35,664 nt of DNA from a virus (lineage: Duplodnaviria > Heunggongvirae > Uroviricota > Caudoviricetes), in IMG/VR virus record IMGVR_UViG_3300045988_119994; one strand, written 5' to 3'. This document shows positions 1 to 1,335 of this stretch, piece by piece (the stretch's first letter is position 1; each line of letters starts with the position of its first letter). The translations under genes were made by a program, and so were the position numbers. Under the pieces are notes generated by a model. The model ran no database searches, was not told where the DNA came from, and saw nothing but the letters and a program-made list of their open reading frames with translations.

Positions 1-77
1 ACTTCGAACGTCTGATGGAAGGCGCTAAACTGCTGAAATGTTCAGAGTTTGGTGATGCGATCATCAAGAACATGTAA
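1..77 (+). CDS. icd: isocitrate dehydrogenase, 3' end (partial; 5' part outside window)
   Basis: Frame-3 translation [24 protein letters not shown] matches the conserved Icd C-terminus as recalled; stop TAA at 75-77; terminator follows. Confidence 0.8.
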   Translation, partial: [24 protein letters not shown]

Positions 78-100
78 TTACTACATGTGTTAAATATTGT

Positions 101-130
101 AACGGGCGTATAACACGCCCGTTGTTTTAT
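101..130 (+). terminator. rho-independent terminator downstream of icd
   Basis: 8-bp stem AACGGGCG / CGCCCGTT (101-108 / 116-123), 7-nt loop, then T-rich GTTTTAT. Confidence 0.6.
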
Positions 131-200
131 GTTAGTACGCTAACGGTTATCAAAATTTTATCAAAATTAGTTATCAAAACCCTTCTGGAAGATTCATGTT

Positions 201-815
201 ATGGACTGCATTTCAAAACAAAAATTCACAATTATTTTAATAGTGGTGTTAATTGCCTTGGGCTGTGCTGCTTATTTTGGAGATGGTGAAGGATATTTTA
301 TAGGTAGCTTTGTGCCTGAATTTACTGGAGTGTGCCTTGAGCTTCTTATTATTTTAAAGGTTTTTGAGGTCTGGCAGCAAAGAGATGAGAAAAGGAAGCT
401 TATTAAGGTTGAAAGACGATTAAGGGAGTTTCTTATTTTCTTTCTGAACCATACGTGCATGGATTTTCCTCCATCCTGCCGTCCAGGGCGTTTTTATGGA
501 ATTGACTATGAGCAAAATCAAAAAGCATTAGAAAAATTAATCAATCATATTGAAGAAAAAGGATTAGCTGAAAATCTTGTTATTCAAGTTCAAATGTATT
601 GTAAGAGTGAATGTCAAATTATAAATAATTTAATCCCAGTTTCTTCTGAGCTTGAAAATGATCACTTTAAATCATGGGTTCGGATTGCCTATTATATGAA
701 TGCCGTTGCTAATGGGCAAGAAAAGGCTAGTGTTGCAATGATTAAAATACTTGAAAATATAAAAAGATTTGATAAGGAATCTCATGATAAAAAACTTTAT
801 GTTGGTGCAAATTAG
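201..815 (+). CDS. hypothetical membrane protein (two N-terminal TM helices plus ~150-aa soluble domain); AT-rich cargo of decayed element
   Basis: 204-aa ORF with ATG at 201; hydrophobic segments at about residues 9-26 and 33-55; visibly AT-rich; no recognisable catalytic motif. Confidence 0.55.
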   Translation: MDCISKQKFTIILIVVLIALGCAAYFGDGEGYFIGSFVPEFTGVCLELLIILKVFEVWQQRDEKRKLIKVERRLREFLIFFLNHTCMDFPPSCRPGRFYGIDYEQNQKALEKLINHIEEKGLAENLVIQVQMYCKSECQIINNLIPVSSELENDHFKSWVRIAYYMNAVANGQEKASVAMIKILENIKRFDKESHDKKLYVGAN

Positions 816-821
816 ATAACA

Positions 822-1083
822 ATAGCTCAGTCTTTCCCTTGGTCATCATAGTGGTGAGCAGTTTGCTACTGGGTCTTATGGCCCAGTAGTTTTCTGGTAT
901 CAACCCCTTGTTCCTTGTAAAGACGCTCAGATAAAGAATTTTGTTCATGAAAAGTTGCTAGAGTTCATGTGCCCTGGTCATTTCCTGCCAAATCCCTCGC
1001 TTTAATGAAATTCACCGTCAACGAATTGGATTTAACCTGTGCACCACGCTCTGTCTGTGAAGTTAAACGGAAAAAATCATGTG
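822..1083 (-). pseudogene. integrase 3' fragment (remnant of an earlier e14-like element)
   Basis: Nucleotide similarity to the 3' ~260 bp of the intact integrase gene (2788-3050) with indels and frame disruptions; no intact ORF; similarity stops near 1083. Confidence 0.7.
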
Positions 1084-1113
1084 TCTAAAACGGATCTATT
1101 TACAGATTGCACT

Positions 1114-1254
1114 AAAGCCGTAGACCTGATTGTTAAAGGTATGGAAGGCGCAATCAACTCCAAGAGCGTAATCTATGACTTCTAACGCTAGATTGAGGTT
1201 ACTAATCTGCTGAAATGTTGAGAGTTTAGTAAATCAATCACAGAAAACATGTAA
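1114..1254 (+). pseudogene. degenerate duplicate of the icd 3' end (icdC-like displaced copy), part of att repeat copy 2
   Basis: Translates as ...[43 protein letters not shown], i.e. Icd C-terminus interrupted by in-frame stops at 1183, 1189 and 1222. Confidence 0.7.
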
Positions 1255-1335
1255 TTCACATTCTGGAATATGTGAGAACGGTAGTCTAGCGGTTCCAGTT
1301 TTTATTATTAGATTTTGAACGGTTATCAAAACAGG
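1114..1335. repeat. att-like direct repeat copy 2 (pseudo-icd 3' end plus AACGGTTATCAAAAC arm at 1318-1332)
   Basis: Same order of elements as copy 1 (icd-like tail, hairpin, GGTTATCAAAA arm), diverged. Confidence 0.55.

Follow-up and report, generated by a model that had tools for sequence, protein, structure and literature searches.

Why should a working 3' end of icd be followed, little more than a kilobase downstream, by a decayed copy of the same tail, with an intact gene and the remains of an integrase gene between the two? The question is raised by the start of a 35,664-nt stretch of DNA from a virus of the Caudoviricetes (IMG/VR record IMGVR_UViG_3300045988_119994), referred to below as the window, meaning the whole stretch numbered from its first base. 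An earlier reading of the letters alone, here called the original prediction, proposed tandem attachment (att)-like repeats left by serial occupancy of the icd site, two e14-like elements having integrated one after the other and the earlier having been deleted down to its att-proximal cargo and the tail of its integrase. The answer reached here is that window 1-2700 is probably the attL-to-int cargo region of a single e14-like prophage of ~40 kb in icd, and that the decayed sequences within it are a fused scar: an ancestral tandem of two elements, a lost element A and the present prophage B, would have collapsed by deletion across the internal att and would now form one mobile composite. The features concerned are collected in Table 1.

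The first 4.2 kb of the window are found at 99.2-100% identity in 31 of 5426 complete E. coli genomes. Strain E4 is near-identical, with one mismatch across window 1-4686 and 99.95% identity across 5735-35625; the stretch between (4687-5734, ~1 kb including a yfdQ-like open reading frame, ORF) is replaced in E4 by IS1A (L001 42064-42831), so the window comes from an E4-like strain without this insertion. In E4 the prophage is ~40 kb long and runs from icd to an icdC pseudogene adjoining iraM, and the B part of the composite comprises e14-like int and xis genes and a prophage body with a full set of structural genes. The composite as a whole is carried by 32 complete E. coli genomes, with 0-12 differences per 4.2 kb. 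Positions beyond the window are given by extending its numbering outward, such that negative values lie upstream of base 1 and values of around 40 kb are window-equivalents in E4.

Integration into icd with replacement of a 165-bp tail by e14 and phage 21 is textbook knowledge (for e14, Hill et al. 1989 as summarised in PMC6379469 and PMC13626634), and the outer parts of the composite follow this module. The insertion lies in the 3' end of icd, a replacement tail of ~165 bp is supplied, the native tail ends up at the far end (as seen in E4 and three further carriers), a lambda-family tyrosine integrase with an N-terminal arm-binding domain and an excisionase adjoin attL, and arm-type repeats flank the core on both sides. 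The 165-bp icd repeat begins 87 nt upstream of base 1 so that the edge of the window cuts the first tail (copy 1), which is the phage-supplied replacement tail of icd; it is the tail of element A that now completes icd and keeps the gene intact. A terminator hairpin like that of copy 1 also lies 3' of the native icdC and of icd in a strain with an empty site. The three TTATCAAAA repeats that follow are presumed, from their sequence and position, to be arm-type sites bound by the integrase. The exact form GTTATCAAAA occurs at five sites in the 49.5-kb locus of E4, where 0.24 would be expected, and every one is att-related in position: two in the attL arm (together with a one-mismatch copy), one 3' of the second icd tail, one at the start of xis and one in the attR arm. 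All attR sites examined, including those with unrelated far ends, have a GTTATCAAAA repeat at 126-127 nt to the left of the core.

The closest known system is e14 of K-12, which has the same insertion point in icd, the same 11-bp core at the start of the 165-bp repeat, a working icd tail supplied by the element, the native one persisting as icdC next to iraM, the same triplet of TTATCAAAA repeats after the terminator 3' of icd, a cargo island between attL and int, and an IntE whose arm-binding domain is 68/70 identical. It differs in being a single degraded element of 15 kb with no internal relic, whereas the composite prophage is ~40 kb, and in its cargo, which comprises ymfD, ymfE, lit and the C0293 small RNA (sRNA) in place of the 204-aa, 154-aa and 298-aa genes found here. 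The record of phage 21 has the same layout of a 165-bp icd-like pseudogene, terminator, three arm subsites, int and xis, with a different arm consensus (YYTTCCCCAAAA) and an integrase of ~76% nucleotide identity over part of the gene.

The third copy of the tail, which the original prediction expected at the distal end of the prophage outside the window, is indeed there. In E4 an icdC pseudogene lies beside iraM at 40128-40295, ~4.5 kb past the end of the window, and this copy is the native tail with its frame still open. The same arrangement of icdC beside iraM is found in fEC.1, O166:H15 JNE070796 and OkiPb01697, and in a strain with an empty site icd is directly followed by iraM.

The sequence repeats predicted within the window also proved to be real. 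Over 157 aligned columns, window 1-155 and 1178-1331 share 68% identity (E 8e-18), and without gaps 1-79 matches 1178-1256 at 75%; the second tail (copy 2), which had been placed at 1114-1335 as the recurrence of 1-180, extends over ~1104-1331, its icd-like part starting at ~1104-1108 rather than at 1114. In-frame stops had been claimed for this part and three premature ones were found, at 1183-1185, 1189-1191 and 1219-1221. It had further been said that the terminator and the threefold arm recur there in degenerate form, of which one arm-type repeat stands, whilst the other two have decayed and the hairpin is lost, there being no fold at the position that matches 99-125 of copy 1. Compared with each functional tail, copy 2 has 21-26 differences in the last 96 positions, spread over the three codon positions as 8/6/10, whereas the functional tails (copy 1, the native copy 3, K-12 icd, K-12 icdC and that of Citrobacter) have 2-11 differences in 132, nearly all of them at third positions. 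Copy 2 once served the intact prophage B as its replacement tail, and by this pattern about a quarter of its sites would have changed by neutral decay.

Between the two tails lie, as predicted, an intact ORF for a cargo protein of 204 aa and a fragment that matches the 3' end of intE: window 825-1077 aligns with 2804-3056 without gaps at 73% identity (E 3e-46) and stays in frame over 83 codons. The relic may extend, much decayed, to ~1100. Its differences from intE fall on the three codon positions as 16/11/41, and this third-position bias indicates that it is a separate integrase allele that was once functional and not a decayed duplicate of intE. Its C-terminus (..KDWAIVI*) resembles that of a Citrobacter class (..KDWAFVT*) and is unlike those of the resident IntE, K-12 IntE and the SC487 Int. 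Furthermore, window 1-1077 is colinear over 1081 nt (75.7%) with a stretch of Citrobacter sp. S2-9 that ends inside int, where a homologue of the 204-aa protein (82% identical) lies between icd and a convergent full-length int that is followed by xis. Proteus terrae has the same module of icd, 204-aa-type gene (57% aa identity), int and xis. In both, the integrase is complete and no second element follows, and at only ~76% nucleotide identity these modules are relatives of the lost element and not its source. Together with the allele class of the relic, the colinear modules show that a second e14-like element, A, did adjoin prophage B, in keeping with the proposal that two such elements met at icd and one was reduced to its att-proximal cargo and the tail of its integrase. 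The same evidence bears on another explanation, in which the segment of B from attL to the 3' end of int was duplicated locally, then diverged and exchanged its cargo. Such a duplication would account for the icd tail and the int 3' end standing in the same order in both units, but it is effectively refuted by the 16/11/41 pattern, by the Citrobacter-type C-terminus and by the colinearity of 1-1077 with independent modules in other genera.

A further tandem at icd is apparently present in Proteus terrae (L015 661-6993), where an A-type module (a 213-aa gene, int and xis) is preceded by a 73-aa icd fragment and would be the inner member; the outer element carries reverse-transcriptase and AAA-ATPase genes, a retron-like defence cargo.

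The age of the relic can be gauged from SC487, which has the 204-aa gene at 95% nucleotide identity beside a shorter int relic, is without copy 2, and has different cargo genes preceding its own full int. The two relics differ by 22-30%, evenly over the codon positions (19/19/20) and thus neutrally, and this even decay of both indicates that the integrase was already dead in the ancestor shared with SC487. On these sequences the relic would have died before the split from a relative that is now 5-8% diverged, and both pseudogenes, the int relic and copy 2, predate by far the divergence of E. coli strains from one another. An intact element A was found in none of the 5426 genomes. The record vB_EcoM-689R6, labelled a phage, consists of a prophage region flanked by host sequence, with a different cargo.

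Whilst its neighbours decayed, the 204-aa gene has been kept under purifying selection, with differences by codon position of 5/1/23 against SC487 and 31/19/99 against Citrobacter. The protein has no match in Pfam, PADLOC, PHROGs, NCBIfam or PDB sequences; it has 74 homologues, some of which stand beside icd and a full int (Citrobacter, Proteus), and a locus search with it across species-representative genomes returned one Vibrio contig only. In Vibrio cholerae (L013, L014) a 63%-identical homologue lies amid toxin-antitoxin and acetyltransferase cassettes, away from icd. It is a widely mobile accessory gene.

Whether the two elements can still be told apart by the recombination machinery depends on the crossover core, which coincides with the opening 11 bp of the 165-bp icd repeat, ATGYTRCGCCA, and which at attL lies at -87..-77, outside the window. 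The annotation of e14 in K-12 starts at base 1 of this repeat, and after excision of e14 icd has the icdC base at repeat position 12 (PMC13626634). In E4, whose attL and attR were anchored on the repeat together with attB, the two ends are unrelated left of position 1 and identical at positions 1-11 (ATGTTACGCCA), with their first difference at position 12, and among carriers the variants at -76 and -65 track the haplotype of the composite and not the host. A 29-nt block, ATTGTTAAAGGTATGGAAGGCGCAATCAA, that is invariant in all five copies was considered as a crossover core with a live internal att; it was rejected because the K-12 annotation, the published post-excision sequence, the core-anchored alignment and the co-variation of haplotypes at -76/-65 all place the crossover in the first 11 bp.

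Exact cores occur in the E4 locus at -87 and 40131 only, and the two ends of the prophage are identical in core. Around the expected internal position (1070-1125) the best match to ATGYTRCGCCA is 7/11, which was reached by 2733 of 5000 shuffles and is therefore at chance level. The internal site thus has no recognisable core, no P arm on its left, a single arm repeat and no terminator, and the missing core implies that the internal att is dead and that the two elements are one fused unit; to this extent "tandem att-like repeats" misdescribes the locus. Three direct att-derived repeats are present as in a resolvable tandem, but the intact internal core is missing, and so are two elements each with recombination functions, as A keeps ~85 codons of int with three stops. 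The opposite case, that the internal copy is still a working att from which B or the 1.2-kb relic could excise alone, would find some encouragement in the conservation of a 41-nt island and of one arm repeat in copy 2. It is nevertheless very improbable given the chance-level core, the decay of two of the three arm repeats and the absence of a left P arm; moreover, no genome or contig has B joined to icd through copy 2, a junction that would shorten Icd by 26 residues, and no lysogen of B alone was found among the 5426 genomes. A search for the signature of copy 2 in complete genomes and in metagenome and IMG/VR contigs returned the same composite and no other form: copy 2 is always accompanied by the A relic, in 32 complete genomes and in 7 metagenome/IMG-VR contigs wherever the upstream region is present. 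A 48-aa ORF with a GTG start (1039-1185, plus strand) runs from the int relic across the junction into the icd-like frame and ends at the first stop of copy 2; it has no evident ribosome-binding site and is probably meaningless.

How the junction arose can be approached from its position. In every reading the right end of the deletion falls within ~20 nt of the internal core, and an endpoint so near the core is unlikely for a random deletion in a 40-kb element. The internal site of a tandem, composed of the P arm of A, the core and the P' arm of B, would be built like attP, and an Int-promoted deletion between this site and a secondary site in the integrase gene of A would produce the present arrangement in a single step. 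For lambda, deletions promoted by Int with an endpoint at att are reportedly classical, being attributed to Parkinson and Huskey and to Davis and Parkinson in 1971.

A different use of a secondary site has also to be weighed, namely that there was no tandem at a shared core and that B integrated at a secondary site inside an A-type int, the rest of A being lost later. It would agree with the relic meeting the tail of B within ~20 nt of the expected core with no clear far-end sequence between them, and with the position in intE that is homologous to the end of the relic, which shares TATGGGCTG with the att region. However, a second and exact deletion would then be needed, joining the far end of B to a perfect core and the native icd tail; the 9-mer TATGGGCTG is explained by SPY/HMGW codons, a chance match of this kind being estimated at ~1 in 4 comparisons; and a pure att alignment of 1078-1122 does almost as well as the split-alignment models (22 matches in 45 against 25). 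We regard this explanation as improbable. The likeness itself lies on the plus strand of intE at 3050-3080, where AATGTACAAGGTATGGGCTGACTG resembles AATGTTACGCCATATGGGCTGGACTG of the icd att region, and it may be either the said coincidence of SPY/HMGW codons or a secondary site or microhomology that was used in the deletion.

That the composite moves independently of its host is seen when carriers are compared. Between carriers, divergence in icd and its flanks amounts to 1.4-3% and persists to within ~30-110 nt of the core; for one divergent pair of hosts it is ~3% in icd to within roughly 30 nt. E4 and fEC.1 have 26 differences over 1884 nt of host sequence upstream of the core region and none over 4200 nt of the composite. 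NIST0056 and O166:H15 have 24 differences in icd between -931 and -115 and 2 between -114 and +3100, the change in density of single-nucleotide polymorphisms falling between -115 and -76. At the right end E4 and O166 differ at 24 of 330 nt in the host and at 2 positions in the last 170 nt of the phage. Conversely, fEC.1 and SC487 differ by 5 in 4800 nt of flank, whereas their A relics are ~8% or more different. The similarity of composites is decoupled from that of their hosts, with the switch at the att core, so that in addition to two parental modules with independent colinear relatives, inheritance as a unit irrespective of host background is found.

It is on this point that the history first proposed, serial integration in this very chromosome with the earlier element deleted in place, runs into difficulty. 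The three icd-derived copies do lie in direct order with the relic between the first two, and icd tandems recur elsewhere, as in the Proteus terrae locus described above. A near-identical composite (0-12 differences in 4200 nt) in hosts with 1.4-3% divergence in icd and flanks, together with the ~25% decay of copy 2 and a relic that died before a 5-8% split, speaks instead of decay that is ancestral and far older than the divergence within E. coli, and serial occupancy in this genome is accordingly considered improbable. Nor does the claim that it was the earlier element that was deleted follow from the topology, because integration of A into attL of B and of B into attR of A give one and the same map. 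The tandem event was ancestral and took place once, not in this chromosome and possibly in an ancestor other than E. coli.

The history that we would propose for the fused scar begins with an ancestral lysogen in which A, with its icd tail, three arm repeats, 204-aa gene, int and xis, stood beside B, the present prophage. A deletion from the middle of the integrase gene of A to the internal att would have removed or destroyed the internal 11-bp core, and would thereby have joined the att-proximal 1.1 kb of A to B. From then on the Int and Xis of B would integrate and excise the whole composite through the icd core 87 nt upstream of the window and the icdC core. The N-terminal 70 aa of IntE are 67-70/70 identical to those of K-12 IntE, 689R6, SC487 and Citrobacter Int, and with arm-binding domains this similar the Int of B should recognise the A-derived attL arm. 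The own tail of B, made redundant once that of A completed icd, would have been free to decay, and the int relic and dead tail would have become passengers of the integration module that were spread across E. coli strains and recombined into different backbones. Loss of the relic alone, by recombination between copy 1 and copy 2, would leave an icd that ends at the first stop of copy 2, which may help to explain why the relic has been retained.

A number of observations weigh against this history. No genome was found in which this lineage still has its A+B tandem intact. The attP junction expected on this model (far end TCTAAATCTA, core ATGTTACGCCA and A tail CATGGGTTGGATCGAAGCC) is absent from IMG/VR and metagenome contigs, and no sequenced virion genome has the composite; as no excised form was found, the mobility of the unit at the present day is read from population data, and some of the spread may reflect recombination between prophages rather than fresh integration. 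Carriers differ in their immunity regions and repressors, in Q-region cargo and even in far ends, which suggests that the unit of inheritance is the attL-to-xis integration module and not the whole phage. The junction is placed only to 1078-1108, within which a deleted core and a decayed one look alike. Finally, the 41-nt island in copy 2 is poorly compatible with simple neutral decay: 0 of 35 positions are changed against 24 of 96 (Fisher test, p = 3e-4, post hoc), or 1 in all 41 against 24 of the next 96 (p about 3e-4 to 1e-3, likewise post hoc), and the sequence on both sides has decayed by ~25% or more. The island does not coincide with the crossover core.

The island raises the possibility that pieces of the relic are themselves under selection, the island and the arm repeat as a binding site through which Int or a host bending protein would adjust excision or the expression of int and xis, and a hairpin at 865-890 as the terminator of the cargo gene. 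The stem of this hairpin is kept in the SC487 relic together with a six-U run, and in the intact Citrobacter int without the U run; from its structure it could possibly serve to terminate the 204-aa gene. We consider selection on these pieces unlikely overall; if it were true, what remains of the lost prophage would have come to serve the surviving one as regulatory parts.

A K-12 lysogen of phage 21 is said, in work attributed to Wang et al. 1997, to have e14 and 21 side by side at icd. Such e14/21 tandems are intact two-element arrays, whereas the locus described here is a fused relic. It is routine to find tandem islands marked by three related att sites, icd is a well-known prophage site, and deletion across an internal att has been proposed, as a hypothesis, to fuse two elements, the case being pairs of a phage-inducible chromosomal island (PICI) and a prophage at fis (PMC10111431). 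The present locus differs from that proposal in that both partners are e14-like modules at icd and the junction is still visible. It is a clear natural example of tandem fusion at icd with an identifiable donor module and no new mechanism, and the understanding of site-specific integration is unchanged by it. What it does show is how two prophages that share one attachment site can collapse into one mobile unit, with the parental modules and the junction still readable. The scar records the history of a phage module and not that of the present chromosome, and fused composites of this kind can mislead the mapping of islands by att repeats. In practical terms, the working attL core of e14-like elements is to be sought at the very start of the 165-bp icd repeat, in its first 11 bp.

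Table 1. Features at the start of the window, in window coordinates
Feature	Position	Strand	Remarks
Functional icd end, copy 1 (last 25 codons and stop)	1..77	+	From translation; end of the intact 416-aa icd annotated in E4 and other carriers
Intrinsic terminator of icd, phage-borne	99..125	+	Stem of 10-11 pairs (11 by scan, 10 by fold), then a T run
Three direct TTATCAAAA repeats	146-155, 157-166, 170-179	+	Presumed P' arm-type sites of the working attL
204-aa cargo gene of lost element A	201..815	+	Intact ORF; two predicted N-terminal hydrophobic segments
Integrase relic of element A (3'-terminal ~85 codons)	822..1077	-	Three in-frame stops
Hairpin followed by UUUUCUGG, inside the integrase relic	865..890	+	11-bp stem; region z = -2.8; 50 nt 3' of the 204-aa ORF
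Putative fusion junction of integrase relic and dead icd tail	1078..1108		Expected position of the internal core, none recognisable
Decayed icd tail, copy 2	1104..1254	+	81-83% identity to E. coli icd; frame from ~1104/1108 to the stop at 1252-1254
Nearly unchanged 41-nt island in the dead tail	1117..1157	+	One mismatch; none in 1123-1157
Sole surviving arm-type repeat after copy 2	1322..1331	+	Other two decayed
Two overlapping cargo genes of prophage B	1337..2672	-	154 aa, multi-hydrophobic, 1337-1801; 298 aa, 1776-2672
intE, intact	2788..3915	-	Pfam Arm-DNA-bind_1 7e-37, Phage_integrase 7e-19
xisE, intact	3896..4156	-	Pfam Exc 6e-12

The rest of the cargo of the attL-int island is found between the decayed icd tail and intE, where the two overlapping genes of prophage B are present only together with the composite (32 genomes). 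Neither the 154-aa nor the 298-aa protein has a match in Pfam, PADLOC, PHROGs, NCBIfam or PDB. In related elements the same slot holds lit (e14) or a DUF262 gene (689R6), and from this position the two may be regarded as a candidate uncharacterised defence pair. The island therefore has three conserved genes without family assignment at a place where relatives have known or candidate defence genes. An Rfam scan of the window returned nothing, including no C0293-like sRNA.

The exact GTTATCAAAA at the start of xisE, at 4142-4151 on the minus strand, is in the opposite orientation to the repeats of attL, and from its location the integrase may bind near the start of xis and int and regulate itself.

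Cargo also varies elsewhere in the prophage. The slot between the Q antiterminator and lysis genes (window 14518-15357, minus strand) holds a TIR-domain gene in the window, E4 and O166, and in NIST0056 a KwaB-like gene instead (L009 34308-35192), so that defence-type cargo varies by carrier. The far end of fEC.1 (L025 10490-10660) is K-12 e14-like together with its P arm and is unrelated to that of E4, despite an identical composite from attL to int, and the two ends of the attachment apparatus would thus seem to have been exchanged independently. In OkiPb01697 (L004 5072-11245) prophage B has been reduced to ~6 kb, with IS3 in int and the phage body lost, and this strain still keeps the A relic, copy 2, the B cargo pair and icdC.

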